A DNA stretch of 53,945 nucleotides, taken from assembly GCA_964460195.1 (NCBI GenBank), contig CAYWPJ010000006.1:1-53945 (forward strand), in the 5' to 3' direction. Source of the DNA: an uncultured Methanosarcinales archaeon (GTDB lineage: Archaea; Nanobdellota; Nanobdellia; Woesearchaeales; GW2011-AR9). Shown here piece after piece: positions 25,248 through 50,746 of this stretch. The position numbers were made by a program, and so were the translations under genes. The first letter of the stretch is position 1. The number at the start of each line of letters is the position of its first letter. Under the pieces are notes generated by a model. The model ran no database searches. It had not been told where the DNA came from and was given only the letters and a program-made list of their open reading frames with translations.

Positions 25248-25280
25248 TGGGGGTGTTTTTAGGGGTGTTAGGGGTTAAAA

Positions 25281-25718: not shown

Positions 25719-25722
25719 GTAA

Positions 25723-30317: not shown

Positions 30318-30613
30318 CCGCGATAGTGTTTAATCTGCGGGATATATTTAAATTATTCGATTTGATTAAACAGGTATATCCCTAAGAGTAAAAAAATCCA
30401 AATTCCATAACCTATTTAAACCTTGATTTAAACTTGTTTTAGAGAAAGAGAAGGGAAGCAGCAAAAAAAAGTCAGGAGGCAGCAAAAAAAGTGGCTGATC
30501 AAAAAATCAAAAACCCAATCGCAGCAAGCTGCGGGGTATGCGCTAGTCATCCCAAAAGTGATTGTGTTTTTGGTGTTTCCTCTGACATCGATGGTCACAG
30601 CAAGCTGTTGGGT

Positions 30614-32875: not shown

Positions 32876-33438
32876 AACCCCTGATTATCACCTGCGGCTT
32901 GTCCGGCTCGGGCAAGACCTTCCATTCAAAGAAACTGAAGGAAAAGCTGGCTGGTTACCGTTTGATCAACCTGGGCCAGTTCCGGGAGCAGCTGGGCATT
33001 ACTACTTATTCCCGCAAAGATACGCCTAAAATGCTGGCCCTGGCCATCGAGGAGATTGAAAAGAACCATCATCTCGGCTTCGGCTCCCTCCTCGACGCTA
33101 ATTTAAAGACCAATGACTTGAGGCAGTGCTTCTATGACCTGGCCAAATATTTAGGAACGGAAGTCCTCCTCATCGAGATGAGCTGCTCTGACGAAGCCGC
33201 CCGCCGGAGGATGGAAGAACGGGAGCAGACGACTCTGGCTGAGAACCCGAAATTGTTCTCTGTCTATCTCGAGCAGAAGAAGGTCTGGCAGGACACTTTA
33301 ATGGACTTAGAGTTGGCCGGGAATGAGCATCTGACGGTCATCAAATACAATACTGAAAGCCATTCCTTAGAATTAATTAAGGGGAATCTGGCTGGTTCTG
33401 CTCTGGTTGGGCAAATCGTGGAAGTGTTGGCTGGTTGA
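32872..33438 (+). CDS. P-loop kinase (AAA_33/APS-kinase-like fold; substrate unknown)
   Basis: Walker A is CGLSGSGKT. LLDANLKTNDLRQ resembles the DxTN motif of AAA_33 kinases. The ATG overlaps the upstream stop (ATGA at 32872-32875). Confidence 0.6.
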   Translation: MKPLIITCGLSGSGKTFHSKKLKEKLAGYRLINLGQFREQLGITTYSRKDTPKMLALAIEEIEKNHHLGFGSLLDANLKTNDLRQCFYDLAKYLGTEVLLIEMSCSDEAARRRMEEREQTTLAENPKLFSVYLEQKKVWQDTLMDLELAGNEHLTVIKYNTESHSLELIKGNLAGSALVGQIVEVLAG

Positions 33439-33999: not shown

Positions 34000-34752
34000 C
34001 TAATTCCTCTCCCGATCTTCCTTCAGCAGACTGAGGGACTGGCTGAGCAGTTTCCTCAAAAATTCTAAAAAGTTGACCAGGGAATAGGCAATTAAAGTGT
34101 AATGAGGCAGATCAAAAATTATTCCAAAAAAAAGCAGGTTCCCCAGATGCTCGACCCGGAAGAAGTCAAAGAGCCGCTGTTTCCAGTTAAACCGCCCCGT
34201 CAGCGATCCGGAGCGGAGAGCCGACTGCTGCATCAGCTCAAAAACCTTGTTTCTTTCCTCTTCGGTCTTCGAATACCAGGCCGGGTTTAGAGTAATCGCC
34301 TTGTTAAGCAGATAAAAAAGAGCGGCAGCGAAACCAAAAATCAGGTAGAGGGGGCCGAAGCGGAGGGAAGTGCCTATACCTAAGCAGACGAAGAGGAAAG
34401 GATTGTTGACATAGTGCCCCAGCTGATCAAGATATTTCGGGAAAAGCTTCTTCCGCAGCGGGCGTTGGGGATGGTGATAGCGGTAGAGTTTCCCGTCCGA
34501 CAGGTCAAGGACAAACATCAGCTGGAAAAGGACAATCCCCAGGACGAAGTAGCGGTATTCCCCGCTCAGGAAAAGCAGGGGGATAAAAAACTGGAAGATG
34601 ACCCAGAAAAAAGTCAGCTGGGTAGGAGTAACCTTCAAAAGGAGGGCTAGTTTAACAATATAATTGGCAAAGTAATCTAAAACTCTTTCATAACCCCATC
34701 TTTTAGTTTGGGTTTGTTCACGAATGGTTTTTATTGACGGAAGTTTCATCAC
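34000..34752 (-). CDS. Divergent CDP-alcohol phosphatidyltransferase-like membrane protein
   Basis: Polytopic. DLSDGKLYR corresponds to DxxDGxxAR, followed by KYLDQLGHY. It is a paralog of 36401..37234. Confidence 0.55.
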   Translation of the reverse strand: MMKLPSIKTIREQTQTKRWGYERVLDYFANYIVKLALLLKVTPTQLTFFWVIFQFFIPLLFLSGEYRYFVLGIVLFQLMFVLDLSDGKLYRYHHPQRPLRKKLFPKYLDQLGHYVNNPFLFVCLGIGTSLRFGPLYLIFGFAAALFYLLNKAITLNPAWYSKTEEERNKVFELMQQSALRSGSLTGRFNWKQRLFDFFRVEHLGNLLFFGIIFDLPHYTLIAYSLVNFLEFLRKLLSQSLSLLKEDRERN

Positions 34753-36272
34753 TCCACTCTTTTCTCTCCCTTTTCTCCTGTTTTCGCTCTGCGTTTAAAA
34801 ATTTTCTGAACAAAAAGCCAATCTTCCTTCCTGATCTCCCCAAATAAGTACAAAAATAGCAGGTAGATTGAAAACAAAGCGAAGTAATTCACCAGTAAAA
34901 GTATTCCCGAGTATTGCCAGAAAGAAGCCAGGATAAAAATTAACAGAGAGAGAGCGGTTATTTTCAGGAAAGAAGAAAGACCAACCAGGGTTTTCCATTT
35001 CCCATACGTGTAGGCCAGAGCGGCCAGCAGGGCGATTAAAGCAGCTGACAGGAAGGACCAGGCCGCCCCGATTAAGCCTAGTTTAGGAATTAACAGCCAG
35101 CTGATCAAAAACAGGGCGGCTAAAATGATGATGGTCATGCCCATTTCCACTTTCGGCCGGCCGCTGCCGGTAATCACTGAAGCCAGCAGGGTAAAGACAG
35201 CCAGGGCGCCGGAGCCTAAAGCCAGAAGGGTAAAAACCGGCGCCGCCGGAAGATAATCCGGCGGATAAAATAAGACGACTAATTTTTCCGAGGTGGCTGT
35301 AATCAGGGCCAGGCAGGGGAAAAGAAGCAGCAGAAGGTAACGCAGCGAGCCGGAAAGATATTTCTTTGCCTGCTCAACTTTTCCCGCCGAGAAAGCCCGG
35401 GAGACGGAGGGCATTAAAGTGATGGCCACAACGGAAAAGACCATGAAAGGGAACTGGGAAAGGGTCAAAGCGGCTGTATAGTAGCCCATCAATTCGTTGC
35501 TCACCAGAAAATATTTGACTAAAAAAGTGTTAAGATTTCTCACTAAGGTCAGAGCCAGGGCAGCAACCGTGACCGGCAGGGAAAATTTTAAGATTTCAAC
35601 CCATCCGAAAGTTCTTCCCGAGCTAAAAGCCCGCGCCGGACCGCTTTTCTGGGGCAGGTTCCGCTGCAGAAGCCAGGCGCCGGCCAGAAAAGAAACGACG
35701 GCGGCTAACAAATAACCGGTTAAAACCCCCCAAAGCTGGAATCCCAGAAAAACCAAAACGACGACCAAGATCATTCTCAGGAAGGGATAGCCGACCCTGA
35801 GGATGAACTGCTGCCGGAAAAGACGCAGTCCGTTAAGATAACCGTTGGGATAGAGAGAATTGAGAGCCAAAGGAAAAACGATTACCCCTAAAAGGATCAG
35901 GTAACCTTTCAGCAGGGGCTCTTTGAGAAAGGAAGCCAGGAATCCGGCAGAGAGGATATAGATTAAAGAAAGAGAAATACCTAAAATAACCTGCAGCCGG
36001 AAGGAAGTTTTGATCAGTGATTGTGCGTTAACCTTTGTCTCGGAAAGGAATTTGGCCACCGCTTTAGGTATCCCGGTATTGAGAAAAGCGCGGTTGAAGA
36101 GATAGAGGGACATCAGCAGGCCGAAAATACCGTACATTTCCACTCCCAATTGCCGGGCTAAGATAATGTGTAAAAGATAGTTGGAAAGGATGAAAACCAG
36201 TTCGGAAACCATCATGTAAAAAGTAGCGACTCCCATTGACTGGGCTCTCTTTGGCTGGCTCGACTGGCTCAT
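34749..36272 (-). CDS. MOP-superfamily polysaccharide/oligosaccharide flippase (Wzx-like)
   Basis: 507 aa with about 12-14 TM helices and an N-terminus typical of polysaccharide biosynthesis protein families. It overlaps the downstream gene by 4 nt. Confidence 0.75.
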   Translation of the reverse strand: MSQSSQPKRAQSMGVATFYMMVSELVFILSNYLLHIILARQLGVEMYGIFGLLMSLYLFNRAFLNTGIPKAVAKFLSETKVNAQSLIKTSFRLQVILGISLSLIYILSAGFLASFLKEPLLKGYLILLGVIVFPLALNSLYPNGYLNGLRLFRQQFILRVGYPFLRMILVVVLVFLGFQLWGVLTGYLLAAVVSFLAGAWLLQRNLPQKSGPARAFSSGRTFGWVEILKFSLPVTVAALALTLVRNLNTFLVKYFLVSNELMGYYTAALTLSQFPFMVFSVVAITLMPSVSRAFSAGKVEQAKKYLSGSLRYLLLLLFPCLALITATSEKLVVLFYPPDYLPAAPVFTLLALGSGALAVFTLLASVITGSGRPKVEMGMTIIILAALFLISWLLIPKLGLIGAAWSFLSAALIALLAALAYTYGKWKTLVGLSSFLKITALSLLIFILASFWQYSGILLLVNYFALFSIYLLFLYLFGEIRKEDWLFVQKIFKRRAKTGEKGEKRVE

Positions 36273-36400
36273 GGGAAATTTTCGGCGGCTAAAAAGTATT
36301 TAAGCCTGCTGGAAGAAAGAGACATAAAAAGCTTTCAAAGGCGTGTTGAAATATATATTCAGATAAGTATTGGGAGCCTTCATTTTAGCTCTTTTTCATT

Positions 36401-37234
36401 TTAGCTCTTCTTTATTTTCAGTTTCATTCCTTTGTCAAAACGGCCCAACATCTTTAACTGCACGTAGATCACCCGCAGCATTTTCAAAAGATAGATGGGA
36501 GTATAAACAAAAATAGCCCATTGGGGCAGGTTGACCAGGATCAGGAGAGTCATCAGATTCAAAGGATTGCTCCTCCGGAAAATGAGGAAAAGATTGATTA
36601 ATTTCTGGCTTTTGGGCCGGGTGGACAGCTTTTCTTTAATGATTAAGACTTTTTTTCTCATATCCTTTGCGTAATAAAAAGGATCAGTGATCGCCAGTTG
36701 GCTGTAAAGAATGCTGAAAGCGGCAACTAGCCCGAGGATAAGATACAGATAGTCGTCGTAAGCGAGGGACGTGCCGAGCGACAGGCAGAGGAAAAAGATC
36801 GGCCCGCCGAAATATAACCCCAACTCTTCCAGAAAGATGCCCCGATAGCTTCTGATCTTCTTTATTCTGGCCAGCTGCCCGTCGATATAGTCCAGCAGGG
36901 CGGCGGACGTGTAGAGAAGCACGCCAATGACGTTGAATTTGTATGTCCCAAAGACCATCAAGAAGGAAGCAAATAGCTGCAGGAAAACCCAAAAGGCAGT
37001 GATTTGGTTGGGGGTGATATTTGTCTTTAAGATAATTCTGGTCACGTAGAGCAGCGAATGATGCATCAGGACGCTGAACCAGGAATAATAATCTTTCTTG
37101 CAAAGTTCCCGCAGCTCGGCCATGGAAATATCTTTATAAGGCTTGGATGGATAAGGTTTAGGGGGATCTGATTTAGAAGGATGTGATTTTGAGAGGTAAG
37201 GTTTAGGCGGCTCTTTTTTGGCTGGTTTGGGCAT
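36401..37234 (-). CDS. CDP-alcohol phosphatidyltransferase family protein (divergent second half-motif)
   Basis: LLDYIDGQLAR-x8-GIFLEELGL means D1, D2, G and AR are present, D3 is Glu and D4 is absent. The N-terminus is proline/lysine-rich with PKPY/PSKS repeats. Confidence 0.65.
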   Translation of the reverse strand: MPKPAKKEPPKPYLSKSHPSKSDPPKPYPSKPYKDISMAELRELCKKDYYSWFSVLMHHSLLYVTRIILKTNITPNQITAFWVFLQLFASFLMVFGTYKFNVIGVLLYTSAALLDYIDGQLARIKKIRSYRGIFLEELGLYFGGPIFFLCLSLGTSLAYDDYLYLILGLVAAFSILYSQLAITDPFYYAKDMRKKVLIIKEKLSTRPKSQKLINLFLIFRRSNPLNLMTLLILVNLPQWAIFVYTPIYLLKMLRVIYVQLKMLGRFDKGMKLKIKKS

Positions 37235-37426
37235 GGACTGGCCGGCGGCAATATTATTTAAAAGGCTTTCGTTCCTGTGTTCTATTGTGTTATCCCGAAA
37301 CTATTTCCCCGCGATTAAATCTGAGAACTTCCTATCTCTGAGAACCATTACTTATTTAAACCAGCAGTTTTTAAAAGAAAATTGTAGGTTAATAAACGAT
37401 GGATTAAATAAATGGTGAATTAAACA

Positions 37427-37909
37427 ATGATTGGCACAATCCAGCTTTTCCTTTCCCGCTGCCTCCGCCCCTTTTGGAAACCCGGCCTGCCGGTGATTTT
37501 TCCCTTAGCCCAGCTGATGCGGGAACTGCTTCTTTTCATCTTCAAATGCGATATCTCTCCCCTGGCTAAAGTTCCCTATTCGACCAAATTTCCCCATCAT
37601 ATCGGCATTGTCATCGGCGCCTGCACCATGGGCGAGAACTGCCTCATCCGGCCTAACGTGGTGATCGGAAGAAAAGATGTCGAGGGGGAAAAGGAAACCC
37701 TGGCGGAAAAAAGAGCTAAATTTCCCATGCTTGGTTCTAATATCATCATCGGCTCCAATGTTTCCATCCTTGGCCCGATCCGGATCGGCGACAATTCCAT
37801 CATCGGGGCGGGAAGCGTCGTTCTGAAGGACGTTGAGGAGAATGGGATATATGCCGGCGTGCCGGCGAAAAAAGTCGGTGAGGTTAATGTTAAGCGAGCG
37901 ATATATTAA
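37427..37909 (+). CDS. Hexapeptide-repeat acyltransferase, serine O-acetyltransferase (CysE)-like C-terminal domain
   Basis: HHIGIVIGACTMGENCLIRPNVVIG .. KFPMLGSNIIIGSNVSILGPIRIGDNSIIGAGSVVLKDV..AGVPAKKV forms a left-handed beta-helix. Confidence 0.7.
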   Translation: MIGTIQLFLSRCLRPFWKPGLPVIFPLAQLMRELLLFIFKCDISPLAKVPYSTKFPHHIGIVIGACTMGENCLIRPNVVIGRKDVEGEKETLAEKRAKFPMLGSNIIIGSNVSILGPIRIGDNSIIGAGSVVLKDVEENGIYAGVPAKKVGEVNVKRAIY

Positions 37910-38933
37910 CGACGATAAGAGTACAGTCTATCTAGGTGAATCCGCCCTGTCCGGGAAGCAGGCTTTGCTGGCGAAAGCAGCTCAAGGGATATACCCCACA
38001 GAAGAAGCGCCTTGCTCTATCTGCCAGAGCGGCCATTTTAAAGTCCTTTCCAAAAAGGAGCGAAGAGGAATCCCCTTATCCGTAGTTATCTGCCAGAATT
38101 GCGGTTTGGTCCAAGCTAACCCCCGGTTGGATAAGGAAGCTTACGTCCAGTTTTATAACAACGAATACGAGCTGCTTCAAGCTGAAGCAGACGGAGAAAA
38201 TGAAACTTTCTTCAGCATCGAACGGAAGCGGGGGAAAAAAATTTATGAATTTCTAAAAGGACAGCTGGGAAGGGGAATTAAGGATAAATTTATCGTCGAG
38301 ATTGGTGCCGGGGCCGGGGGGATTCTCTCTTATTTTCAGGAACAGGGAAACGAGGTTTACGGTCTCGACTTGGGAGAGGAATATGTTAGATTTGGCCAAA
38401 AGAAAGGTGTCCGCCTGGAGGTAGGGGGGATAGAAAAACTTAAGCAGCTAAAGAAAAAACCTTACTTAGTCATCTACAATCACGTTTTGGAGCATCTTCT
38501 CGATCCTCTTAAAGAATTGCAAGAGGTAAAAAAACACCTGAGAGAAGGAACTTTTTTGTACCTCGCTGTACCGGGAATTAAAAACATCCCTTACTCCCAT
38601 CAATCAGACTTTCTAAAATACTTAACCATCACTCACGTCAATTATTTCACTAAGACAACTGTATCTAATTTGTTTAAGATGGCCGGGGGGTTAAGAATTG
38701 TCCATGTTGATGAAAAAATAGAAGCCTTCCTCCAGCTGGATTCAAGGGTTAAACCGAACAAGATTCAAAACGACTATGAGTCCTGCTGGGAATTTCTTCA
38801 GAAGCTTGAAAATAGCCGACCAGGGAATTTTTCCTGGCAAAGGATTAAAAACGCTCTGATGAACTTTTTAAAGAGAATAGGGCTGTACCGTTATTTAAAA
38901 TCGGCTTATTCCAAAATAAGCAATTTCCTATAA
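37887..38933 (+). CDS. Class I SAM-dependent methyltransferase with N-terminal Cys4 zinc ribbon
   Basis: CSICQS..x..CQNCG, then motif I VEIGAGAGG and YGLDLGEE. The ATG at 37887 is preceded by GGTGAGGT; the track ORF begins at 37833. Confidence 0.7.
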   Translation: MLSERYINDDKSTVYLGESALSGKQALLAKAAQGIYPTEEAPCSICQSGHFKVLSKKERRGIPLSVVICQNCGLVQANPRLDKEAYVQFYNNEYELLQAEADGENETFFSIERKRGKKIYEFLKGQLGRGIKDKFIVEIGAGAGGILSYFQEQGNEVYGLDLGEEYVRFGQKKGVRLEVGGIEKLKQLKKKPYLVIYNHVLEHLLDPLKELQEVKKHLREGTFLYLAVPGIKNIPYSHQSDFLKYLTITHVNYFTKTTVSNLFKMAGGLRIVHVDEKIEAFLQLDSRVKPNKIQNDYESCWEFLQKLENSRPGNFSWQRIKNALMNFLKRIGLYRYLKSAYSKISNFL

Positions 38934-42316: not shown

Positions 42317-43528
42317 TCAGCAGCAGAAACTTCTCATCTGCTCGAGATTGTCCTTAAACGTTCCGGCTTTAAACAGTCCGGAAGTTCCGCCGACAAAAAT
42401 CCTCGCTCCCGCCTGGTAGAGATGGGGCAGGGTTCTTGGCCCGACCGAGCCGTCAACCATAATGGAAACCGGCTGTGCGTGCTCCCGGGCGTATTCGCTG
42501 AAAGCCCGGATGCGCTCAATGACGGAAGGAACAAATTCGTTGCCCTTAAACCCCGGTTCGACACCCATGAAGAGAACCAGACTAATCTTTCCCAGGAAAG
42601 GGTATAATTTTTCCACCGGCGTCCCGGGATTAATGGCCAGCCCGGCTTTCATCCCTCTGGCTTTGATATCGTCAAGAACGCCGTCAATGCCCGCTTCACT
42701 TTCCAGATGGACGATGACAATGTCCGCGCCGGCTTCCGCCAGGCGGGAGATGTAAGAGGCAGGGTATTTAACCATCAGATGAACATCAATCGGCAGGTAG
42801 GTGTGGGACCTTAAGGCGGCGATATGATCGATGTTCAGGGAAATATTGCGGCTGAAATCGCCGTCGATAATATCGATGTGGAACATATCGACATCGGCTT
42901 CAGCTAGTTTTCTGATGTCATCAAGCAGATGAAGCTGGTTGGCGCACATCAGCGAAGCGGAGATTTTCACTTCCCGGCCCCGGGTGTCATTCAACATGGC
43001 TGAGGAGAGGATCTCTCCGGAACTTTGGTCCCGGCCTTCGATGATATGCTTTTCGATGATGGAAATCTGGTTTCTCCGCCTCTGATGCCTTTCCCCTTCG
43101 GCTTCAGTGAAAAGCCAGGTTCTGACGATTTCTTTCGCCTGCTGGCTGGAGAGGTGGCCGGCCCCCAAAGCGAGGATGTTGCTGTCGGTATGCCGGCGGC
43201 TTAACTCGGCCACTTCATGATTGTAAGCCAGGGCGGCTCGGATACGGGGGAACTTATTGTCGACGATGGAGACTCCCACCCCGGTTTTACAGACGACAAT
43301 TCCCCTTCGGTACTGTCCTTTGGATACTTTGTCGGCGACGGAAAGGGCATAGATGGGGAAATCAACGCTTTCTTGAGAATAAGTACCCAAGTCCAGGGGC
43401 TGGAAACCGAGCTGGGTGAGATACTGCTTGAGTTCCTCTTTAAGCTCAAAAGCCGGGTGGTCACTGGCGATAGGTATGACTTCGGGCATGACCTCTTTTG
43501 TCATGATGGGGAAGGCCGGACAGAGCAT
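42317..43528 (-). CDS. Fusion protein: ribose-5-phosphate isomerase B (N) + ribulose-phosphate 3-epimerase family (C)
   Basis: RpiB motifs: IPIASDHPAFELKEEL, GIVVCKTGVGVSIVDNKFPRIRAAL, RRHTDSNILALG, EGERHQRR. Rpe motifs: SASLMCAN, FHIDIIDGDF, IDVHLMV, MGVEPGFKG, MVDGSV. Start could be 43528, 43504 or 43489. Confidence 0.85.
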   Translation of the reverse strand: MLCPAFPIMTKEVMPEVIPIASDHPAFELKEELKQYLTQLGFQPLDLGTYSQESVDFPIYALSVADKVSKGQYRRGIVVCKTGVGVSIVDNKFPRIRAALAYNHEVAELSRRHTDSNILALGAGHLSSQQAKEIVRTWLFTEAEGERHQRRRNQISIIEKHIIEGRDQSSGEILSSAMLNDTRGREVKISASLMCANQLHLLDDIRKLAEADVDMFHIDIIDGDFSRNISLNIDHIAALRSHTYLPIDVHLMVKYPASYISRLAEAGADIVIVHLESEAGIDGVLDDIKARGMKAGLAINPGTPVEKLYPFLGKISLVLFMGVEPGFKGNEFVPSVIERIRAFSEYAREHAQPVSIMVDGSVGPRTLPHLYQAGARIFVGGTSGLFKAGTFKDNLEQMRSFCC

Positions 43529-43652
43529 ATTTAAACGTTGTGGAACATTATAAAAGATTTGAAGTTAAATGTTCTCTAACGGAAGTTGAAAAAGGTATAA
43601 GTTAAATATTTGAAGTTGCACCCCGCCGAAAGGGGGAACTTCTAAAAAATAT

Positions 43653-45197
43653 TTAACCTGAAGAATATTTGAACAAAAGTATCTTATTGAATTCCTTCAA
43701 CTCGCCCGGCGGAAAACGGGCTTCCAGCTTCTCTTTAACTCCCTGATAATCCTTGAATTGGGGCGTAACCAGCAGCCAAATATTCTTTGGCGCATCCGGC
43801 GGCATATTTTTTGAGGCATCCAGTGGCAGGAACCGGTCAACTTCTTTATCGACTTCCTCCCCGCTTTTAACCGCAATCAGGTTATACTCCGGTCCGGGAC
43901 CGCCGGCATCATGTCCGGCATAATAATTAAACAGAAAGAGGGTTGAAGGGCTGTCATCAATAATCACCATACTTCCGGCCGGCGCCTTCTCTGCCAGGTA
44001 AGCGATGGCCCCCTTCCAGTCCGGCTTGGTCGATGATTCATAATAGGTATGCAGGGCAAAGCCGTTGACAACAAGAATGATCACCACAACTAAGACTTTT
44101 AATTTCCGGCTCTTCAGCTGCAGGATGCCTTTAGCCATCAAGACATAAAGCACAGGGACGATAAAATAAGAATGCCGCACCAGGGAAAGGGATTCGACGG
44201 TGAATTTAAGGGAGAAAAGGTAGACAATGCCCAAAGCGGCCAGGCCAGCCAGGAATAACATCTCTTTTTTTTCTTTAAACCATGTGAACCACGCTCCGGA
44301 AAAAAAATCGGTTTTTTTCTTCAGGAAGAGGATCAAGGCCAGGAAACCAATCACTAAGGCCAGGGGCAGGATAAAAAAGAAGAGCCCCAGGCTAGCCAGA
44401 GCTTCGGGAACTCCCCGCACCGTCAAGGCATTCAACAGATGATGATGTCTGGTGAAGAACTGCCTCAGCAGGAGGCGGGCTAAAGGAAGGGACAGCAGGA
44501 AAAATACCCAAACGGAACAAGCCCACTCTTTTAAGAAAGGTTTCCGGTTGAGGAAACAGATCAGCAGCCAATGAAGGAAAACCAGGAAAAGAGTCAGGTA
44601 GTTGACATACATAGCCAAAACTAAAGTTAAAATGTAAGCAATTAAAAATTTCCTGTTCCTTTGGCTGTTATTATTGTTATTGTCATAATTATCACTAATT
44701 TTATCATCAATCTTTTTATTCCTCATCGCTTCAACCAGGAAATAAGTTGAAAGCAAAGCCAGGAAGCCAAACAAGCTGTATAATCTTGCTTCCTGTGAAT
44801 AGAGCACCTGAAGCATCGCCGTGGCCATCAGCAGGGAGCTGAGCAAAGCGGTGGGGCGGTCGAAAAAAGGATCCAAGCCTTTGACCAGGAAAAAAAACAC
44901 TAAAATGGAGAGCAGCCCAAAGAAAGCAGAAGTAAACCGGAGGGAAAATTCCGAATCGCCAAACAATTTGATCCAATAATGCAGAAGGAGGTGATGCCCG
45001 TAAGGAGAGCCTTCCAGCTGGGCGACCTTTGCCATCACCTTCGCCGGGCTTTCTTCCCCGGCTTCCATCAGGGAGACAGCTTCGTCCGTCCATAAGCTCT
45101 CGGCGTCCAACTGGTAAAAACGCAGGATCCCCCCCGCCAGGAGGATCAACAGCAGCAGCCATAAGTATATTTTTTTCATGGTGTTTTTCTTCTTCAA
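43653..45197 (-). CDS. GT39/ArnT-like (PMT_2) polyprenyl-phosphate-sugar-dependent glycosyltransferase
   Basis: Polytopic, 514 aa. The N-terminus LLILLAGGILRFYQLDAESLWTDEAVSL is the typical first-loop DE motif. Confidence 0.75.
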   Translation of the reverse strand: MKKKNTMKKIYLWLLLLILLAGGILRFYQLDAESLWTDEAVSLMEAGEESPAKVMAKVAQLEGSPYGHHLLLHYWIKLFGDSEFSLRFTSAFFGLLSILVFFFLVKGLDPFFDRPTALLSSLLMATAMLQVLYSQEARLYSLFGFLALLSTYFLVEAMRNKKIDDKISDNYDNNNNNSQRNRKFLIAYILTLVLAMYVNYLTLFLVFLHWLLICFLNRKPFLKEWACSVWVFFLLSLPLARLLLRQFFTRHHHLLNALTVRGVPEALASLGLFFFILPLALVIGFLALILFLKKKTDFFSGAWFTWFKEKKEMLFLAGLAALGIVYLFSLKFTVESLSLVRHSYFIVPVLYVLMAKGILQLKSRKLKVLVVVIILVVNGFALHTYYESSTKPDWKGAIAYLAEKAPAGSMVIIDDSPSTLFLFNYYAGHDAGGPGPEYNLIAVKSGEEVDKEVDRFLPLDASKNMPPDAPKNIWLLVTPQFKDYQGVKEKLEARFPPGELKEFNKILLFKYSSG

Positions 45198-45226
45198 GAT
45201 GTTTTCTTTAAGGAGTTTCTTCCGGG

Positions 45227-45982
45227 CTACATCACAGAACCGCCGCAGACCGGGATGTTAACTCCGGTAATCCCTTTAGACTTTTCTGAAGCCAGAAAAA
45301 GAATGGTTCTGGCCGTATCTTCCGCCTCCGCCAACCGCCTCAGCGGAGTCTGCATACCTAGGACTTCAAACATCTTTTCCGGGAGGTGCTCGGTGAATCT
45401 GGTCCTGGTCACCCCGGGAGAAACCATATTGACACTGATGCCCAAAGGGCCCAGTTCAGCTGCCAGCGCTTTGGAAAAGCCTTCCAGGGCATGCTTGGCG
45501 ACGAGATAAGGTGAAAGTTTAGGCGGCGGAACACTGAAAACGTAGGAAGTCAGGACATTAATCAGCTTCCCCTCTTTCCGCTCAACCATCTGCGGCAGGG
45601 CCTGTTTTGCCAGATGGTAAGCTCCTTTGACGACGACATCTATAAATTTCTGGTAATCCTCCCAGTTTAGCTCCGGCACGCCGGCCGGCTGGGGCTTCGG
45701 GCAGGCATTATTGACAATGACATCAATCCGGCCGTATTTTTCCATCACGATTTCCACCATTTTTTTTACCTGCTCTTCTTCCGCCACATCCGCCGGCACG
45801 GCCAGGGCGCTGTCCGGACTGCCCGTTTCTCGCTGAATTTCGGAAACCAGCCGGGCGGCGGTAGACTCGTCTGCCCGGTAATTAACAATCACTTTTGCCC
45901 CGTTCATCGCCAGAAGGCGGGCGGTAGCCGCTCCGATGCCGGTATTTCCTCCGGTAATCAGGACAACCTTATCTTTGACCAT
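45227..45982 (-). CDS. Short-chain dehydrogenase/reductase (3-oxoacyl-ACP reductase FabG-like)
   Basis: VVLITGGNTGIGAATA (TGxxxGxG), NNAC and catalytic YLVAK. The ATG is at 45982; the track start at 45997 is TTG. Confidence 0.85.
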   Translation of the reverse strand: MVKDKVVLITGGNTGIGAATARLLAMNGAKVIVNYRADESTAARLVSEIQRETGSPDSALAVPADVAEEEQVKKMVEIVMEKYGRIDVIVNNACPKPQPAGVPELNWEDYQKFIDVVVKGAYHLAKQALPQMVERKEGKLINVLTSYVFSVPPPKLSPYLVAKHALEGFSKALAAELGPLGISVNMVSPGVTRTRFTEHLPEKMFEVLGMQTPLRRLAEAEDTARTILFLASEKSKGITGVNIPVCGGSVM

Positions 45983-46081
45983 TTTTATAATCCTCAATTA
46001 TCTTTAATTTTATTTAATCATTTATTGTATCTTAACTATTTCTACTGTTTTTATTTTTAAAGCATGTTCTTAAAGCATATC

Positions 46082-46519
46082 CTAAAGCACCCTGACCCTG
46101 GCTTCGCCTTCCACCAGCAATTTATCCCCTTCCCAGACAGTTGTTCTCAACTCGAGGAGGCGCAGGGCGTCAACTTTTTTGGTCACTTCCCCGCGGACGA
46201 CGATGGTCTGCCCGATCTTCACCGGCCGCCGGAAATTTAAACTCTGTGAAAGATAAAGACATCTTTTTCCCGGCAGGTGCATCCCAACCAAAGCCGAAAA
46301 GAGCGAACCGACCAGCATCCCGTGAGCGATCTTCCCGCCAAAGGGGGTCGTCCGGGCAAAATCCCCGTCAACGTGCAAAGGATTAAAATCACCGGTCAAA
46401 CGGGCAAAACAATTGATTTCCTCTTCACCAATCAGCTTGCTGAAACTGGCCTGATCGCCGACTTGGATCTTTTCGTAACTTAAGTCTGCCGCCTTTAAGC
46501 CGGCTTGGTCAATCATCAA
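46082..46519 (-). CDS. MaoC-like (R)-specific enoyl hydratase/dehydratase (hot-dog fold)
   Basis: FARLTGDFNPLHVD..IAHGMLVGSLFS is the hydratase 2 motif. Confidence 0.85.
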   Translation of the reverse strand: MMIDQAGLKAADLSYEKIQVGDQASFSKLIGEEEINCFARLTGDFNPLHVDGDFARTTPFGGKIAHGMLVGSLFSALVGMHLPGKRCLYLSQSLNFRRPVKIGQTIVVRGEVTKKVDALRLLELRTTVWEGDKLLVEGEARVRVL

Positions 46520-46749
46520 ATTTTCACCCCGTGCCGGCGCAGGGACTCCTTGATGTCGCGGACCGTTCTTACCAGCATGATCTCTTCCATGGTGAACTTG
46601 ACGTTAAAACTTTTCTCCAGCTCAGTCACCATTATCAGGCCGTTGAAAGAATCCCAGCTGGCAATGTTGTCCGGCGAGCTCTCTTCATTAATGGCTGAGG
46701 GATCAACCTTGAGGACTTCTGACAGTATTCGGTAAAGTTTTTCTTCCAT
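46516..46749 (-). CDS. Acyl/peptidyl carrier protein (phosphopantetheine attachment site)
   Basis: 77 aa. SWDSFNGLIMVTELEKSFNVKF carries the DS attachment serine. It overlaps the MaoC gene by 4 nt. Confidence 0.8.
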   Translation of the reverse strand: MEEKLYRILSEVLKVDPSAINEESSPDNIASWDSFNGLIMVTELEKSFNVKFTMEEIMLVRTVRDIKESLRRHGVKI

Positions 46750-46829
46750 CTTTTATCTTCTGTTCCCTTTTTTTATTCTCCATTTTTATTTTCCTGCCTC
46801 CCGCCGGTCTCTTTAGCCAGCCTTGACTT

Positions 46830-48578
46830 TTAATCCTTAACCTCAAGGTAATCGGGATAAGCCGGATGATCATTTTCCAAATCAAGGGACCACAAAATAG
46901 AGCTTTCTTTCTCTTCGTAAAGGGCAAAGCCGTGAGCTTTATAAAAGTCCCTGGTCTGGATGTTCTTCCCAGTCGGGATATATTCTCCAATCACTTTTTT
47001 TGCTCCCCGCTCCCGGGCTTTCTTCAGGAGGTGAACCAGCAGGACCTCTTCGATTGACCGTCCCAGGATGCGGCAGCTCATCAGGAAAGAGTCAATTAAC
47101 ACGGTCTCTCCCGCCATCCTGAGGATCGCCACGCCGACAATCCCGTTCTCCCCCAGCTTGTCCCAGGACCTGATTGAGCAGACATAATACCGGGAAGAAC
47201 GGCTAAATTCTTCAATCTCGGCTTCAGAATACCGCCGGGCAGTCAAATTGAACTGGTTGGTGCGGTTAGTCAGCTGGGAGATGCGGGGAATGGTGAAACT
47301 GTCTGCTAGCTTGATTTCCACTTTCATCTCCAGGCTTCGGAGGAAATCGGCCGGATTCTTAAATTCCTTCCTCATTTCCTTTCTCTGCCTCTCTTCAGCA
47401 TACATCTTCCCCCTAGCTTTATCTACTTCCGTCAGCTGCAGGGAATTGAATTCCTTCAGATTCATCAGGGTCTCGGCGTAGAGCGAAGGATCACCGGGAA
47501 GGCCAACCACTGTCACTTCCGGCAGGAGCTCTTTGACCAGCAGGCGGTTAAGCTGATCGTCGTCGACGAAGACCAGGCTGTCCGTGCCGATGTTCAGCTC
47601 TTCAGCGATCTCCTTGAGGTTAGCGGCTTTGTCCAGCCAATTAAGGCGCATCGCCGAGAAATGCTCTTCTCTCAGGAGCATGTAAGGATGCCGGCGGAGC
47701 ACTTCCAGGGCGTCATCGGGATTGTTCTTGCTGTTGATGGCCAGGATCACCCCTTTATGGAATAAGGAAAGGATAACTTTCTGGAATTCTAAAAAAGCGT
47801 TGCCCGGAGGGGTCAAGCCAAGTTTGAGATTGTCCAGCCCCTCTTCGCCGACGACTCCGCCCCACAAAGTATTGTCCAAGTCCAGGACGAGACATTTTTT
47901 CGGCTTGCGCCGGATGGCCGCCAGATAAGTAAAGTACTGCTCGGCCAGGGCAGGGTAATAATCGGGATGCAGTTTCATGTCTGCCAGGTAATACAGGCGG
48001 GAATCAAAACTGTTCTTCTTGCCCTGGGCGCTCAGAAAGAGGTCATAATCAAAGATGAGGACATTTTTGTTTCCCCGGAAGGCCTCTTCCAGCTCCCCGT
48101 TCATCCGGCGGACAAAACTCCTCAGCCCCATTTCTTCCTTGTGGTCGATGATTCCTAAGGGGGAATAAAGAGGAACTTCAAAGTTGTGGACGATGATAAA
48201 AGTCCGGGGGTGCCGCTGGGAAAAGTTTGACAGCAATTCCCGGAGATAACAAATTTTCTCGCCAATCAGCTCTTCCTTCTGCGCCCGGCTCTTCCGGAGC
48301 AGCTCCAGGTAGTCCGGAAAATAAGACTTAAAATCAAGGAAATAAAAAAGTATCCCCGGCTGGTATTGGGACAGCCCGCTCTCCGGATGGCTCAGCTCCT
48401 GAACACCAAAATTGTAAGAGGTATAAAGCCGGATTTCCGCCGGCAGGTTTTCCTGGAAGCATAATTTTTCCATCACCTTGGGGAAATTGTTTAAAGTGAA
48501 ACTGGCCAGGATGGCGACTTTAATCTTATCCTGGGAATCCTTATCCTGAGAGTCCTGAGCGCCGGAATTGTTTCCCAT
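46830..48578 (-). CDS. FkbH-like HAD-IIIC domain protein with C-terminal GNAT-like domain
   Basis: CLVLDLDNTLWGGVVGEEGLDNLKLG is the diagnostic HAD-IIIC/FkbH motif. The length of 582 aa and a C-terminal acyltransferase-like fold fit. Confidence 0.85.
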   Translation of the reverse strand: MGNNSGAQDSQDKDSQDKIKVAILASFTLNNFPKVMEKLCFQENLPAEIRLYTSYNFGVQELSHPESGLSQYQPGILFYFLDFKSYFPDYLELLRKSRAQKEELIGEKICYLRELLSNFSQRHPRTFIIVHNFEVPLYSPLGIIDHKEEMGLRSFVRRMNGELEEAFRGNKNVLIFDYDLFLSAQGKKNSFDSRLYYLADMKLHPDYYPALAEQYFTYLAAIRRKPKKCLVLDLDNTLWGGVVGEEGLDNLKLGLTPPGNAFLEFQKVILSLFHKGVILAINSKNNPDDALEVLRRHPYMLLREEHFSAMRLNWLDKAANLKEIAEELNIGTDSLVFVDDDQLNRLLVKELLPEVTVVGLPGDPSLYAETLMNLKEFNSLQLTEVDKARGKMYAEERQRKEMRKEFKNPADFLRSLEMKVEIKLADSFTIPRISQLTNRTNQFNLTARRYSEAEIEEFSRSSRYYVCSIRSWDKLGENGIVGVAILRMAGETVLIDSFLMSCRILGRSIEEVLLVHLLKKARERGAKKVIGEYIPTGKNIQTRDFYKAHGFALYEEKESSILWSLDLENDHPAYPDYLEVKD

Positions 48579-48595
48579 TTTTTAATCTCTTTTCT

Positions 48596-49039
48596 TCAAT
48601 CCTCTGGTACTTGGCTAGCCAAAGCGACGGCCGTCGCATAATCCGAAGTATGGGAAAAGCTGACTTTAATTTGATATTTAGCTAATCCCGGCCGGCGGAT
48701 TCTGGCGGCAGGCGCGGGGCTGCCGGCTTCAGCTTCAATCTCAATCTCTTTCAGGGAAAGGTTAAGGGAAGGAATCGCCTTAATGATTGCTTCCTTAGCC
48801 GCAAAACGGGCGGCAAAAGACTGCGCCGGGCTGGGCTTGGTCAGGCAGGTCCTGATCTCCTCTTCAGTGAAGAGCTTAAAGTAAAATTCTTTGTTTTCCG
48901 AATATGGCCGCTGCTCAAAGCGGGCGACTGATTCAATGTCCGTCCCTATCCCCGGCATTCCCTTAAGTATTTTCTCAGACGCATCTTCGGATACTTCCCC
49001 GAGTACTCCTTTAGGCATTCTTCCTGGTCTCTTAGGCAT
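48596..49039 (-). CDS. 4'-phosphopantetheinyl transferase, AcpS type (holo-ACP synthase)
   Basis: GIGTDIESVARFE, FAAKEAIIKA and SFSHTSDYATAVA. The true start may be the internal Met at 48958 (MPGIGTDIE). Confidence 0.8.
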   Translation of the reverse strand: MPKRPGRMPKGVLGEVSEDASEKILKGMPGIGTDIESVARFEQRPYSENKEFYFKLFTEEEIRTCLTKPSPAQSFAARFAAKEAIIKAIPSLNLSLKEIEIEAEAGSPAPAARIRRPGLAKYQIKVSFSHTSDYATAVALASQVPED

Positions 49040-49628
49040 TCCTTCTCACCTCTTTGACATAAAACAGCCTTTTATTTTCCCCCCGCCCTAAAGAGTGGGT
49101 TTCCTTAAATCCGAAATATCGGTAAAGCTGGTTAGCGGTTAAATTATTTTCCTTAACTTCCAGGGCATACTTTTTCACGCCCAGCTCTCGGTACTTTTGG
49201 TCAACCATCTTCATCAGGTTCAGGGCAATGTAAAGATTCCGGTACTTCGGAGCGACAAAAAAAAGGATGAACTCTTCCTTGATTTCCGCCTTCTGGTTCC
49301 CCGCTGGATAAAGCTGACGCAGGCGGAAAATCCTCTTTAGCAGGCCTATGAGGAAAAGCGGTTTCATCAGCAAACGCCGGTAAAGCTGGTTGATATCCCT
49401 GGTCGAGACGGCCGCGCCGACGACCTGCCCTGCCTCATTCAGCGCCGCAAAGCCAAAACAGTTGCCGCTGCCTATCCCGGCATCATAGAACAGGCGGGCA
49501 TATTTTTCTCCCATGTCATAGAGCAACCCCTCCTGCAGAGAGCGCAAATGCAGGGAAGCAATCTCCCAAACATCATTTCGGTCGAGAGGACGATAACTTA
49601 TTTTACTTTCGACTTTTCCCATCTTCAT
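49032..49628 (-). CDS. GNAT-family N-acetyltransferase
   Basis: The core VVGAAV..., YRNLYIALNLM and ANQLYRYFGFK is weakly GNAT-like. It overlaps both neighbours, so it is internal to the operon. Confidence 0.6.
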   Translation of the reverse strand: MKMGKVESKISYRPLDRNDVWEIASLHLRSLQEGLLYDMGEKYARLFYDAGIGSGNCFGFAALNEAGQVVGAAVSTRDINQLYRRLLMKPLFLIGLLKRIFRLRQLYPAGNQKAEIKEEFILFFVAPKYRNLYIALNLMKMVDQKYRELGVKKYALEVKENNLTANQLYRYFGFKETHSLGRGENKRLFYVKEVRRNA

Positions 49629-50461
49629 TCCCCGCCCAGCCGCAGGCTGACCACCCTTTTGAAATAGACCCAGCCGAATTTCAGCAGCGAGGTTAAACTG
49701 CCGGCCGTCTTTGAGCTGCCTTCCAGGCGGTCAATAAAATAATAAGGCACTTCTTTGATTTTATATCCTTTCCGCCCGGCCCGGTAAAGAAAGGCAATGC
49801 AATATTCCCCATAAGTAGAATCGGGCAGGGGGAGCTGGGCCAGGACTTCCCGTCTGGCGGCAATGAAACCGCTGGTGTAATCTAAAACCTTAAAGTTAAG
49901 GATGAAGTTGGCCGCCAGGTTGATCATCCGGCTGGTGACTAAACGCAGCCTTGGCCGGAGATCCTTTCCTCCCTGGGCATACCTCGAAGCGACGGCAATA
50001 TGATTGTTCTCCAGCTCGGCGAGAAGCCGGGGAATGGTTTCGGGAGGCATGGATAAGTCGGCATCCATCCAAACAATAAATTTTCCCTTCGACTCGGCGA
50101 TGCCCCGTTTCAGTGAATTTGCCAGGCCCTTATTTTCTGTCCTCCGGATGACCCTGACCCCTTTCTCTTTGTGCCCGGCACCTGCCGCGATCTGCCAGGT
50201 TTTGTCAGGGCTGTCGTCGTCGATGACAATGATTTCTTTACGGCGCCCGGTGAGAGCCCGATCAATCCTTTCGATTAAATGGGTGATATTACCGGACTCG
50301 TTATAGGTCGGCAGGATAACTGAGATTTCCACTTCCTCTTTTATTCCATCTTTTACTCCCTTGTTTACCTCCTCTTTTATCTCATCTTTTACCCAGCTTT
50401 TTACTTCATCCTTTACTCCACCTTTTACTTCACCTTCTCCCTTCAACTCTTTGCTTTTCAT
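49625..50461 (-). CDS. Family 2 glycosyltransferase (polyprenyl-phosphate hexose synthase-like) with Lys/Glu/Val repeat N-terminus
   Basis: SVILPTYNE, IVIDDDSPD, WMDADLS and YTSGF. The N-terminal 45 aa are VKD/E-x-V/I-K repeats. Confidence 0.85.
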   Translation of the reverse strand: MKSKELKGEGEVKGGVKDEVKSWVKDEIKEEVNKGVKDGIKEEVEISVILPTYNESGNITHLIERIDRALTGRRKEIIVIDDDSPDKTWQIAAGAGHKEKGVRVIRRTENKGLANSLKRGIAESKGKFIVWMDADLSMPPETIPRLLAELENNHIAVASRYAQGGKDLRPRLRLVTSRMINLAANFILNFKVLDYTSGFIAARREVLAQLPLPDSTYGEYCIAFLYRAGRKGYKIKEVPYYFIDRLEGSSKTAGSLTSLLKFGWVYFKRVVSLRLGGE

Positions 50462-50746
50462 CTAAAGAAGAACTGAATCCAAGCCTTTAAATAACTTTTG
50501 AAAGAGTGACACTACCGTCCTCCATACTTTTCTTATAAGGAGTCGCTACCCCCTTATTTCATTTGCCCTTCTTTATTGCTTTATGTTTTTTATAGTAATT
50601 GGTGTAGTACCTGTTAGTTGCCCTAAGCCAGAGGCGGAAGCGCAGCGTGGTCTGAGGTTCGGGTGTTTTAGGAGAAGGAGTATTGTAACTTGAGAGTAGT
50701 TAATAACCGAAAGGTTTAAATACTTGCGGTTAAAATTAGATTAAAT

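Follow-up and report, generated by a model that had tools for sequence, protein, structure and literature searches.

What would an archaeon do with an acyl carrier protein (ACP) that is encoded together with its own activating enzyme and bracketed by two glycosyltransferase genes? Phylogenomic studies depict archaea as devoid of ACP and holo-ACP synthase, save for a few scattered transfers (PMC3533463). We analyzed contig CAYWPJ010000006.1 of GenBank assembly GCA_964460195.1, from an uncultured archaeon placed by GTDB in the Woesearchaeales, over positions 1 to 53,945 of the forward strand; this entire stretch of 53,945 nucleotides is referred to below as the window. It carries an eight-gene operon encoding an ACP, an AcpS-type phosphopantetheinyl transferase (PPTase), a long-form FkbH-like loader, a MaoC-type dehydratase, a short-chain dehydrogenase/reductase (SDR), a GNAT-fold acyltransferase, and two glycosyltransferases, one of the GT2 type and one membrane enzyme of the GT-C type. 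We propose, with a probability of roughly 0.55 for the mechanism as a whole, that the products of this operon would make an ACP-bound C3 hydroxy-acyl unit and couple it to the export of a lipid-linked sugar. One part of this proposal we hold with considerable confidence, namely, that the operon supplies envelope glycan chemistry with a C3 acyl unit bound to ACP.

The open reading frame (ORF) listing placed the eight genes on the minus strand between positions 43653 and 50461, all co-directional, in the order GT2, GNAT, AcpS, FkbH, ACP, MaoC, SDR, and GT-C (Table 1). Start and stop codons overlap at three junctions (GT2/GNAT, 4 nt; GNAT/AcpS, 8 nt; ACP/MaoC, 4 nt), and the remaining four intergenic gaps are of 17, 80 (FkbH to ACP), 84, and 29 nt. 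The initial annotation of this DNA had described the same eight co-directional genes, with several overlaps of 4 to 8 nt, at the same positions. Domains were assigned with Pfam and NCBIfam profiles and their curated cut-offs. All eight proteins scored above these cut-offs and retained their catalytic motifs, which bears out the domains named in that annotation, the label GT39 apart. The TATA-like box TTATTTAAA upstream of the GT2 gene is a candidate archaeal promoter that would give rise to a near-leaderless operon transcript, and the T6 run downstream of the GT-C gene is a candidate archaeal terminator closing the unit. Together, the two signals would fit an archaeal transcription unit of eight genes. 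Scans of the region for sigma-70 promoters and intrinsic terminators, which are not relevant to an archaeal host, gave results at chance level. The gene directly downstream of the operon, which encodes a fusion of ribose-5-phosphate isomerase B (RpiB) and ribulose-phosphate 3-epimerase (42317-43528, minus strand), has a separate TATA-like box of its own.

Table 1. Genes of the operon and candidate transcription signals, in window coordinates
Feature	Position	Strand	Profile match or reading
TATA-like box TTATTTAAA (candidate promoter)	50486..50494	-	~29 nt 5' of the GT2 ATG; putative, read from the sequence
GT2, polyprenyl-phosphate (dolichyl-P) sugar synthase-like, 278 aa	49625..50461	-	PF00535 1.5e-38
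GNAT-fold acyltransferase, 198 aa	49032..49628	-	PF00583 7e-9
AcpS-type (group I) 4'-phosphopantetheinyl transferase	48596..49039	-	PF01648 2e-15
Long-form FkbH-like loader, 582 aa	46830..48578	-	TIGR01686 1.1e-90
Acyl carrier protein, 77 aa	46516..46749	-	PF00550 8.9e-7, 29.5 bits vs cut-off 20.8
MaoC/PhaJ-type single hot-dog (R)-specific hydratase/dehydratase, 145 aa	46082..46519	-	PF01575 1e-21
Classical FabG-like SDR, 256 aa	45227..45997	-	PF13561 1e-56; PF00106 3.6e-48
GT-C membrane glycosyltransferase, PMT_2 (ArnT/PMT-like), 514 aa	43653..45197	-	PF13231 1.3e-8, 35.7 bits vs 26.1
T6 run (candidate terminator)	43644..43649	-	4 nt 3' of the GT-C stop codon; putative, read from the sequence

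Ser34 of the ACP (codon 46648-46650), located in a WDSF motif, aligned with the DSL serine that carries phosphopantetheine in the solved carrier proteins 2LML and 6LVT, in agreement with the initial annotation, which had singled out the serine of WDSFNGL. Since the equivalog models for housekeeping AcpP all remained below their cut-offs, the protein is predicted to be a specialized carrier rather than AcpP. The PPTase matched PF01648 (57.2 bits for a cut-off of 25) and TIGR00556 (66.2 bits for a cut-off of 45.35). It is a divergent member of its family, since its score against the acpS equivalog TIGR00516 (49.7) is under the cut-off (59.8). Alignment to the PPTase of the yeast fatty acid synthase (2WAS) and to bacterial AcpS structures identified the motifs GIGTD, FAAKEA, and SFSH. 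With this domain and these motifs, AcpS would be expected to phosphopantetheinylate Ser34 of the dedicated ACP. The catalytic domain begins at approximately residue 28 to 30, and an alternative start codon is present at M28 (48958). The ORF thus has a 27-residue basic N-terminal extension (48958-49039) that is missing from the orthologues of two other contigs, L001 and L006 (116-117 aa); translation from M28 would turn the 8-nt overlap with the GNAT gene into a 73-nt gap.

The FkbH-like protein matched TIGR01686 with 304 bits (cut-off, 146.65) over residues 227-553, the HAD-IIIC model TIGR01681 with 65.8 bits (cut-off, 35.75), and the FkbH_N family PF21211. It comprises three domains, namely, FkbH_N at the N-terminus, a HAD-IIIC phosphatase domain (D233 and D235 in LDLDNT), and a C-terminal GNAT-fold domain containing Cys502 (SCRILGR). 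D233, D235, and C502 were invariant across 28 homologues. In an AlphaFold2 (AF2) model (pLDDT of 79.5), the N-terminal and HAD parts resembled BF1531 of Bacteroides fragilis (Protein Data Bank [PDB] entry 3SLR), which also matched residues 11-383 in the sequence comparison (1.5e-45), and the C-terminal GNAT fold held Cys502. Characterized FkbH and OzmB enzymes convert 1,3-bisphosphoglycerate to a phosphoglyceryl-S-enzyme, dephosphorylate it, and transfer the glycerate to ACP (PMC9057759). By analogy with these members of its family, the window FkbH would take 1,3-bisphosphoglycerate, dephosphorylate it on the HAD domain, hold the glycerate on Cys502 as a glyceryl-S-enzyme intermediate, and deliver it to the holo-ACP as glyceryl-S-ACP. 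A second cysteine invariant in close homologues, C229, was also considered as the catalytic residue and was dropped because the polyketide synthase (PKS) described next does not share it in its FkbH-like domain.

A tblastn search against plasmids retrieved a match on plasmid p1 of Burkholderia sp. FERM BP-3421, the producer of FR901464 and spliceostatin (PMC10190677), within a PKS protein (WP_273995518.1). This protein starts with a MaoC_dehydratase domain (aa 10-98), an adh_short domain (280-467), and an FkbH-like domain (498-1030), followed by an ACP and a ketosynthase (KS). From the strain identity and the domain order, we infer that the gene encodes the fr9 loading module. The FkbH of the window aligned with the FkbH-like domain over 553 aa, N-terminal domain included (29.5% identity, 1e-58), the MaoC protein aligned with the N-terminal MaoC domain (36% identity, 8e-14), and the SDR aligned with the adh_short domain (aligned aa 280-369, 30% identity, 1e-11). 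The FkbH DxDxT motif and SCRxLGR cysteine and the MaoC DxNPLH motif are common to both systems, the residues equivalent to D233, D235, and C502 being kept in the PKS (SCRVLGR). MaoC was also related to PhaJ of Aeromonas caviae (1IQ6, 6e-29) and retained the catalytic D-x-N-P-L-H motif (GDFNPLH). The SDR displayed the motifs TGxxxGxG, NNAC, and YxxxK, with FabG enzymes as its best solved relatives (3OSU, 2.6e-39); its true start is likely to be an internal ATG (MVKDK).

In the FR901464 and lankacidin pathways, the dehydratase-ketoreductase pair reportedly forms lactyl-S-ACP from glyceryl-S-ACP (PMC4765723). Since the same four domain families form the FR901464-type loading region, lactyl-S-ACP is the predicted product of the operon, via pyruvoyl-S-ACP. 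By this analogy, the MaoC hot-dog protein is proposed to act as a glyceryl-ACP dehydratase generating enol-pyruvoyl- and then pyruvoyl-S-ACP, and the SDR is proposed to reduce the 2-oxo group to afford lactyl-S-ACP. The comparison argues with moderate strength that FkbH, ACP, MaoC, and SDR may be the stand-alone counterpart of an FR901464-type loading module. The two systems share a MaoC hot-dog, an adh_short SDR, a long-form FkbH with its N-terminal domain, and an ACP. They differ in that the PKS carries the four domains in a single polypeptide feeding a KS, whereas the window encodes four separate proteins and no KS and adds a dedicated AcpS, a GNAT, and two flanking glycosyltransferases in an archaeal host. 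We give the lactyl group, specifically, an even chance of being the product.

A survey of FkbH loci bears on the nature of this product. Searches retrieved at least 7999 FkbH homologues at E <= 1e-10, and at least 591 FkbH-ACP loci were confirmed in GTDB species genomes. Cassette composition was determined by hidden Markov model (HMM) annotation of 87 loci. An ACP adjoined FkbH in nearly all of these; MaoC was present in approximately 35, MaoC together with SDR in approximately 15, often in the order MaoC-SDR-FkbH-ACP, and FkbH plus ACP alone in approximately 27. For the last group, which holds FkbH and ACP alone, glyceryl-ACP must itself be usable as an end product. The unit made here might thus remain a glyceryl group and end up in an N-glyceroyl sugar, of which Pse5Am7Gra is an example, or become oxidized, the SDR acting as a dehydrogenase to generate a 2-hydroxy-3-oxopropionyl or hydroxymalonyl unit as in the methoxymalonyl-ACP route and MaoC acting on another intermediate. 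Glyceryl-ACP is indeed oxidized in the characterized methoxymalonyl-ACP systems that rely on FkbH (PMC9057759), N-glyceroyl nonulosonic acids exist whose genetic basis is described as unknown (PMC5378307), and the flagellar glycosylation locus of Campylobacter jejuni contains an fkbH-domain gene, cj1302 (PMC7099621). The pairing of MaoC with an SDR, however, is the one fused to FkbH and ACP in a lactyl-forming loading region, the order MaoC-SDR-FkbH-ACP recurs in loci of Nitrospinota and Clostridia, and the operon lacks the HADH- and acyl-CoA-dehydrogenase-type enzymes and the O-methyltransferase of the methoxymalonyl route. We therefore regard a glyceryl or oxidized end product, taken jointly, as unlikely for this operon. 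The FkbH, OzmB, and GdmH loaders of that route and of tetronate pathways resemble the window protein in belonging to the TIGR01686 family, in having a dedicated downstream ACP, and in their expected substrate, 1,3-bisphosphoglycerate, and phosphoglyceryl-S-enzyme intermediate (PMC9057759). Unlike it, they are of approximately 350-370 aa, lacking the N-terminal domain of approximately 220 aa, and have HADH, acyl-CoA dehydrogenase, and O-methyltransferase enzymes downstream, with products entering polyketides rather than glycans.

The genes surrounding this module suggest where the acyl unit may go. The best solved relative of the GT2 was the dolichyl-phosphate (Dol-P)-mannose synthase of Pyrococcus furiosus (5MLZ, 2e-39), followed by ArnC (9e-15) and the GtrB-like sll0501 (3e-14). 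DDD and DAD motifs were read from its sequence, and hydropathy analysis revealed no transmembrane helix. Scores against all NCBIfam equivalogs were under the cut-offs, so the profiles assign no sugar specificity. The N-terminus of this protein (50327-50461, minus strand) consists of a 45-residue quasi-repeat rich in K, E, and V (VKDEVK..., VKDEIKEEV..., VKDGIKEEV) that precedes the catalytic domain; the L001 and L006 orthologues are shorter by approximately 45 residues, about the length of this extension. By hydropathy, the GT-C protein has approximately 9-10 transmembrane segments within residues 7-384. Its first loop, after the first segment, carries a DE motif (LWTDEA), and a soluble domain of approximately 130 aa forms the C-terminus. 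A sequence search of the PDB with this protein returned no match. The initial annotation had labeled it GT39/ArnT-like. The ArnT/PMT-like GT-C character was confirmed by PF13231, whereas GT39 in the strict sense was not, PF02366 (PMT) and MIR remaining unmatched at E <= 0.01. Because PF13231 is the only match, the protein should be filed as PMT_2/ArnT-like.

The GNAT is a rare protein. Only 12 relatives were found among 5.8e9 proteins, and an exhaustive search of 1.84e9 representatives returned 317 matches at E<=1e-3, 2 of them at E<=1e-30. Its AF2 model (pLDDT of 84.7) was closest to AAC(6')-Im and to polyamine and agmatine N-acetyltransferases (TM-score of ~0.6); the fold neighbors are generic amine N-acetyltransferases, including RimI-like enzymes, and AAC(6') enzymes act on amino sugars. 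We propose that the GNAT is an acyl-ACP:amine (amino-sugar) N-acyltransferase. As such, it would acylate an amine with the lactyl or glyceryl group, most probably the amine of an amino sugar that is linked to a nucleotide or to dolichyl phosphate and whose synthesis is encoded elsewhere in the genome. The DPM1/ArnC-like GT2 would transfer the sugar to dolichyl phosphate, and, after flipping, the PMT_2 GT-C would pass it to a surface acceptor, which may be an S-layer protein, a glycan, or a lipid; the enzyme families are clear from the profiles, and the donor and acceptor are predicted from them. For N-acylation of an amino sugar routed through Dol-P, we see the chances as evenly balanced.

This arrangement has parallels in the ArnC/ArnT, GtrB/GtrA/GtrC, and AglD/AglS systems, which likewise combine a DPM1/ArnC/GtrB-like GT2 with an outer-face transferase of the GT-C type. 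N-formylation of the sugar amine precedes attachment to the lipid carrier in the Arn pathway, and the same logic is proposed for the GNAT of the window. The acyl donor proposed for the window system is an ACP thioester in place of N10-formyltetrahydrofolate or acetyl-CoA. Unlike these three-component systems, the operon includes neither a flippase nor an aminotransferase gene, and its GT2 is devoid of transmembrane helices.

The complete operon was found in other genomes. Orthologues of all eight proteins, with 38-72% identity, were present in L001, a Logan contig, and in L006/L007, two Nanoarchaeia contigs. L001 (FkbH 53% identical) has the order GT2-GNAT-AcpS-FkbH-ACP-MaoC-SDR-PMT_2, identical to that of the window, and L006/L007 keep the full order with eIF-1A adjoining. 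A fourth contig, L089 (FkbH 65% identical), carries GT2-GNAT-AcpS-FkbH up to its end. Identities with the L001 orthologues amounted to 72% for ACP and to 38% over 492 aa for the GT-C; in L001 and L006, they were 58-64% for the GT2 and 45-50% for AcpS. A deltaproteobacterial contig of Ca. Magnetomorum HK-1 (JPDT01001688.1, L004) contains GNAT-FkbH-ACP-MaoC-(139-aa unknown)-GT2, with 45-61% identity (45% for the GT2), and has no AcpS, SDR, or GT-C. It is a candidate for block transfer from an archaeon to a bacterium or, recently, from a bacterium to the DPANN archaea. Because the linkage is kept in the DPANN contigs and in Ca. Magnetomorum, the ACP module appears to have been inherited and transferred together with the GNAT and the glycosyltransferase.

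This linkage bears on whether the acyl-ACP module is a mere neighbor of the two glycosyltransferases and acts on another target molecule, the GNAT acylating a polyamine, a lipid head group (as in an ethanolamine- or serine-type archaeal lipid), a protein N-terminus, or a lysine, and the GT2 and GT-C performing plain Dol-P-hexose glycosylation. Such a separation would accord with the polyamine/agmatine N-acetyltransferases and RimI-like enzymes among the nearest folds of the GNAT, with a plain Dol-P-mannose synthase as the best match of the GT2, and with the lack of any amino-sugar biosynthesis gene in the operon or the window. We consider it quite unlikely nonetheless, as GT2, GNAT, and cassette have stayed linked in both domains despite 45-64% divergence, and their start and stop codons often overlap. 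Distant relatives of the GNAT are likewise found beside GT2, DegT, and PMT_2 genes (GNAT-AcpS beside a PMT_2 gene in locus L088; DegT-GT2-GNAT in L091), and FkbH-ACP cassettes elsewhere lie in sugar clusters with other families of sugar N-acyltransferases.

The gene context of the cassettes in general also favors the coupled mechanism. Among the three nearest genes on either flank of 22 cassettes from archaea and the candidate phyla radiation (CPR), left-handed beta-helix (LbH) acyltransferases accounted for 15 of 100 proteins, and GT2, methyltransferases, nucleotidyltransferases, polysaccharide deacetylases, GDP-mannose-dehydratase/epimerase-type enzymes, GT1, UDP-GlcNAc 2-epimerase, and Antibiotic_NAT were frequent. 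The bacterial neighbors were sulfotransferases (the commonest), GT2 and GT4, LbH acyltransferases, and DegT aminotransferases. In a woesearchaeotal locus (L002), AcpS-FkbH-ACP-MaoC-Antibiotic_NAT is embedded in a sugar cluster of the diamino-uronic-acid type. An acyltransferase of varying fold near the cassette is what would be expected if the ACP-bound acid ends on a sugar amine. The suggestion of the initial annotation that the operon may build an ACP-tethered short hydroxy-acyl or glyceryl unit for a lipid-linked sugar or glycan thus gains from the sugar and glycan clusters in which the cassettes of both domains nearly always lie.

Long-form FkbH-like proteins are known from two bacterial surface-glycan loci, cj1299-cj1304 of C. 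jejuni and that of BF1531 in B. fragilis. These have no in-cluster AcpS, and their FkbH proteins have no characterized function. The C. jejuni locus also encodes a FabH-like KS and two ACPs. In Vibrio cholerae O1, rfbK-O build a short hydroxy-acyl group in an ACP-dependent manner within the O-antigen locus, giving N-tetronate on perosamine; that bacterial system is loaded by an acyl-CoA-ligase/LuxE-like enzyme and not by FkbH.

The same context argues against a remnant or minimal bacterial-type pathway for fatty acids, polyketides, or secondary metabolites that would have no role in the envelope. Such a role might be read from the resemblance of the SDR to FabG and of MaoC to PhaJ and HTD2, from the association of characterized FkbH enzymes with PKSs, and from a survey of DPANN archaea that took FabG, FabI, and FabZ genes as evidence of ACP-dependent fatty acid synthesis (PMC10936187). 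Domain scans of the window ORFs of >=120 aa detected no KS or acyltransferase (AT) domain indicative of a PKS module, and no FabD, enoyl reductase, thioesterase, or other PKS or nonribosomal peptide synthetase (NRPS) component. The type II fatty acid synthase set (KS FabH/F/B, malonyl-CoA:ACP transacylase, enoyl reductase) was found neither in these ORFs nor among the frequent neighbors of the cassettes, which in 84 loci are glycan genes and not KS or AT genes. With glycosyltransferase genes at both ends of the operon and no KS or AT gene in the ORFs scanned, we rejected a fatty acid or PKS role, which is very improbable.

Several observations weigh against the proposed coupling of lactyl-ACP to sugar export. 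In the ORF listing, neither the operon nor its immediate flanks include a small membrane ORF that could encode a GtrA- or ArnE/F-type flippase, and the only flippase-like gene of the window, encoding a Wzx/MOP protein (34749-36272), lies 8 kb from the operon; this flippase could serve its lipid-linked sugar. Domain scans disclosed no aminotransferase or deacetylase that would supply the sugar amine, either in the operon or in the 54-kb window. FkbH proteins of the long form with the extra N-terminal domain have been characterized only in the PKS context, the closest solved protein, BF1531, being annotated as uncharacterized. GNATs normally use acyl-CoA, and the use of acyl-ACP by the enzyme of the window is an assumption; the fold comparison would fit an acyl-ACP or an acyl-CoA donor, and a sugar or a polyamine acceptor, alike. 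We know of no report of an archaeal glycan with an N-lactyl group, although the literature was not searched exhaustively on this point. Finally, MaoC occurs without an adjacent SDR, or both are missing, in many of the 87 loci; because of this, the end product is likely to vary between loci and may be other than lactyl in the present one.

A second group of envelope genes is located at 26493-27575 and 34000-38933 of the window. Besides the Wzx/MOP flippase, it codes for another GT2, a CDP-alcohol phosphatidyltransferase (36401-37234), an acyltransferase of the hexapeptide type (37427-37909), and a methyltransferase (37833-38933).

The archaeal origin of the contig was examined from its gene content and composition. 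The window encodes GatD, Trm5b/Taw22, Mre11, a glycerol-1-phosphate-dehydrogenase-like protein, FEN1, a tRNA-splicing endonuclease (25875-26519), aIF2-alpha, and the proteasome alpha subunit. Rfam detected two tRNA genes on the plus strand (11867-12018, 152 nt; 14928-15067, 140 nt), which presumably contain introns; both were missed by ARAGORN, which reported no tRNAs in the window. All of the best named relatives of GatD, with approximately 70% identity, were from "Candidatus Woesearchaeota" or "Nanoarchaeota". The gene content thus points to a DPANN archaeon of the Woesearchaeota/Nanoarchaeota type as the host.

Misassembly or misbinning that attached bacterial DNA to an archaeal contig would also explain a carrier-protein operon in such a genome, and three observations could be read in that way: the G+C content of the cluster is slightly raised (0.493 versus ~0.46), its tetranucleotide profile correlates with that of the remaining window at r = 0.920, the third-lowest value of the stretches compared, with lower ones in just 2 of 28 sliding windows, and one near relative of FkbH is bacterial (Ca. 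Magnetomorum). The correlation nevertheless falls within the range of the other 6.8-kb stretches of the window (0.817-0.964), so that the composition is coherent with the archaeal contig, a point on which the initial annotation had advised caution. The flanks are archaeal on both sides, with Mre11 on one and the glycerol-1-phosphate-dehydrogenase-like protein and Wzx on the other, and archaeal-type signals, the putative TATA-like box and T run, bracket the operon. It also occurs beside eIF-1A in independent DPANN assemblies, and L001 shares both the operon and a pyruvate-kinase/ATP-sulfurylase fusion gene (L001:1-1914) that the window carries at 30491-32875. A chimeric contig was rejected on the basis of composition, flanks, and recurrence in independent assemblies, and is hardly credible.

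The most deviant tetranucleotide profile of the window (r = 0.817) was that of a stretch of low G+C content (0.36-0.41) at approximately 23800-30600, which may be an acquired island. It encodes a Schlafen/AlbA_2-HATPase_c_4-HTH protein (23853-25226), an ORF without an assigned family (27708-28547), and a 533-aa protein with a SerB-like C-terminus (28716-30317).

The distribution of the FkbH-ACP cassette extends well beyond this contig. Among the best 80 of the at least 591 confirmed loci, the archaeal ones were from Woesearchaeota, Nanoarchaeota, Micrarchaeota, many Nitrosopumilales and Nitrososphaerales, Bathyarchaeia, Thor- and Heimdallarchaeota, Methanosarcinales, and Methanospirillaceae, and the bacterial ones were from CPR, Acidobacteriota, Planctomycetes, Nitrospinota, Clostridia, and others. 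In its exact form, the operon is rare, as judged from the few relatives of its GNAT; the FkbH-ACP core is very common. An AcpS gene was present within the cluster in 22 of the 87 annotated loci. Considering loci with complete flanks, this was the case for 11 of 12 archaeal/CPR loci versus 2 of 49 other bacterial loci (Fisher p = 2e-9), and many Nitrosopumilales genomes carry FkbH-ACP-MaoC-AcpS. The cassette may bring its own PPTase because such hosts have no housekeeping AcpS of a fatty acid synthase. Co-occurrence of ACP, AcpS, and FkbH, which the initial annotation had recommended surveying, is thus widespread in archaeal metagenome-assembled genomes and is not the oddity of one archaeon. 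A dedicated ACP and AcpS pair is common in archaeal genomes, in at least six major lineages, where it is tied to surface-sugar clusters and not to lipid synthesis. The premise of that annotation that archaea generally lack both proteins, although it reflects the literature, therefore does not describe the genomes surveyed.

In a rough neighbor-joining tree of 84 FkbH sequences, computed without support values and indicative of interleaving only and not of the direction of transfer, archaeal and bacterial sequences interleaved. One clade comprised the window and DPANN sequences, with Ca. Magnetomorum nested among them, next to Nitrospinota; others grouped Woesearchaeota, CPR, and Clostridia, or Thaumarchaeota, or Asgard archaea and Bathyarchaeia. 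FkbH thus appears to have been transferred between domains several times. The bacterial acquisition suggested in the initial annotation is plausible; the interleaving of FkbH and the nesting of Ca. Magnetomorum in an otherwise archaeal clade would fit transfer in either direction. Two further observations were made on these loci. The FkbH of L010, a contig labeled uncultured Methanosarcinales, grouped tightly with those of the Woesearchaeota loci L002 and L008, reflecting a recent transfer or a misbinned DPANN contig. In L028-L063, a large bacterial clade of Acidobacteriota and relatives, a tandem pair of ACP genes comes after FkbH, MaoC and SDR are missing, and the commonest neighbors are sulfotransferases and glyoxalase-fold proteins, a separate variant of the cassette.

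The literature search, which included the combinations of FkbH with polysaccharide and ACP and of FkbH with lactyl, yielded nothing relevant and no paper on FkbH-ACP systems in archaea; a recent paper on Nanobdellota genomes does not mention ACP. The possibility raised in the initial annotation that the cluster had already been described for archaeal surface glycans was likewise not borne out by any paper found. Already known are the families of the parts, the lactyl-ACP precedent in PKSs, and the FkbH-domain genes of bacterial glycan loci, which have been noted and not explained. New are the combination of discrete FkbH, ACP, MaoC, and SDR proteins with their own AcpS, a rare GNAT, and a Dol-P-sugar synthase plus GT-C in an archaeal host, and the breadth of the cassette across archaeal phyla. 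On a wider scale, we tentatively suggest, at slightly less than even odds, that carrier-protein chemistry is a regular and self-sufficient part of the archaeal envelope. In DPANN, Thaumarchaeota, Asgard archaea, Bathyarchaeia, and methanogens, a mobile FkbH-ACP(-MaoC-SDR) cassette, with AcpS included where the host has none, would draw on 1,3-bisphosphoglycerate to place N-linked lactyl or glyceryl groups on dolichol-carried sugars.

If correct, this would be the first ACP-dependent pathway with an assigned function in archaea, giving their carrier proteins a concrete candidate function, and the FabG, FabZ, and ACP "fatty acid genes" of DPANN would be reassigned to glycan decoration. It would also link the long-form FkbH proteins, annotated as HAD-IIIC family phosphatases and very common in bacterial polysaccharide loci, to the conversion of glycerate to a lactyl thioester. 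DPANN archaea are episymbionts with minimal metabolism, and a surface decoration made straight from an intermediate of glycolysis could be of importance in attaching to the host or in evading phages. Inclusion of the PPTase only where the host has none would exemplify a self-contained mobile pathway. The widespread occurrence of the cassette lowers its rarity and raises its generality, since it is present, unremarked, in many public genomes.

Gene fusions are many on this contig. In addition to the RpiB fusion, they include a fusion of methylthioadenosine phosphorylase with adenine phosphoribosyltransferase (1134-2447, minus strand) and the above-mentioned pyruvate-kinase-like and ATP sulfurylase fusion (794 aa). 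The gene for the latter overlaps by 4 nt that of a P-loop AAA_33 kinase (32872-33438), which may be adenosine-5'-phosphosulfate (APS)-kinase-like; the two proteins may supply 3'-phosphoadenosine-5'-phosphosulfate (PAPS) for sulfated glycans.

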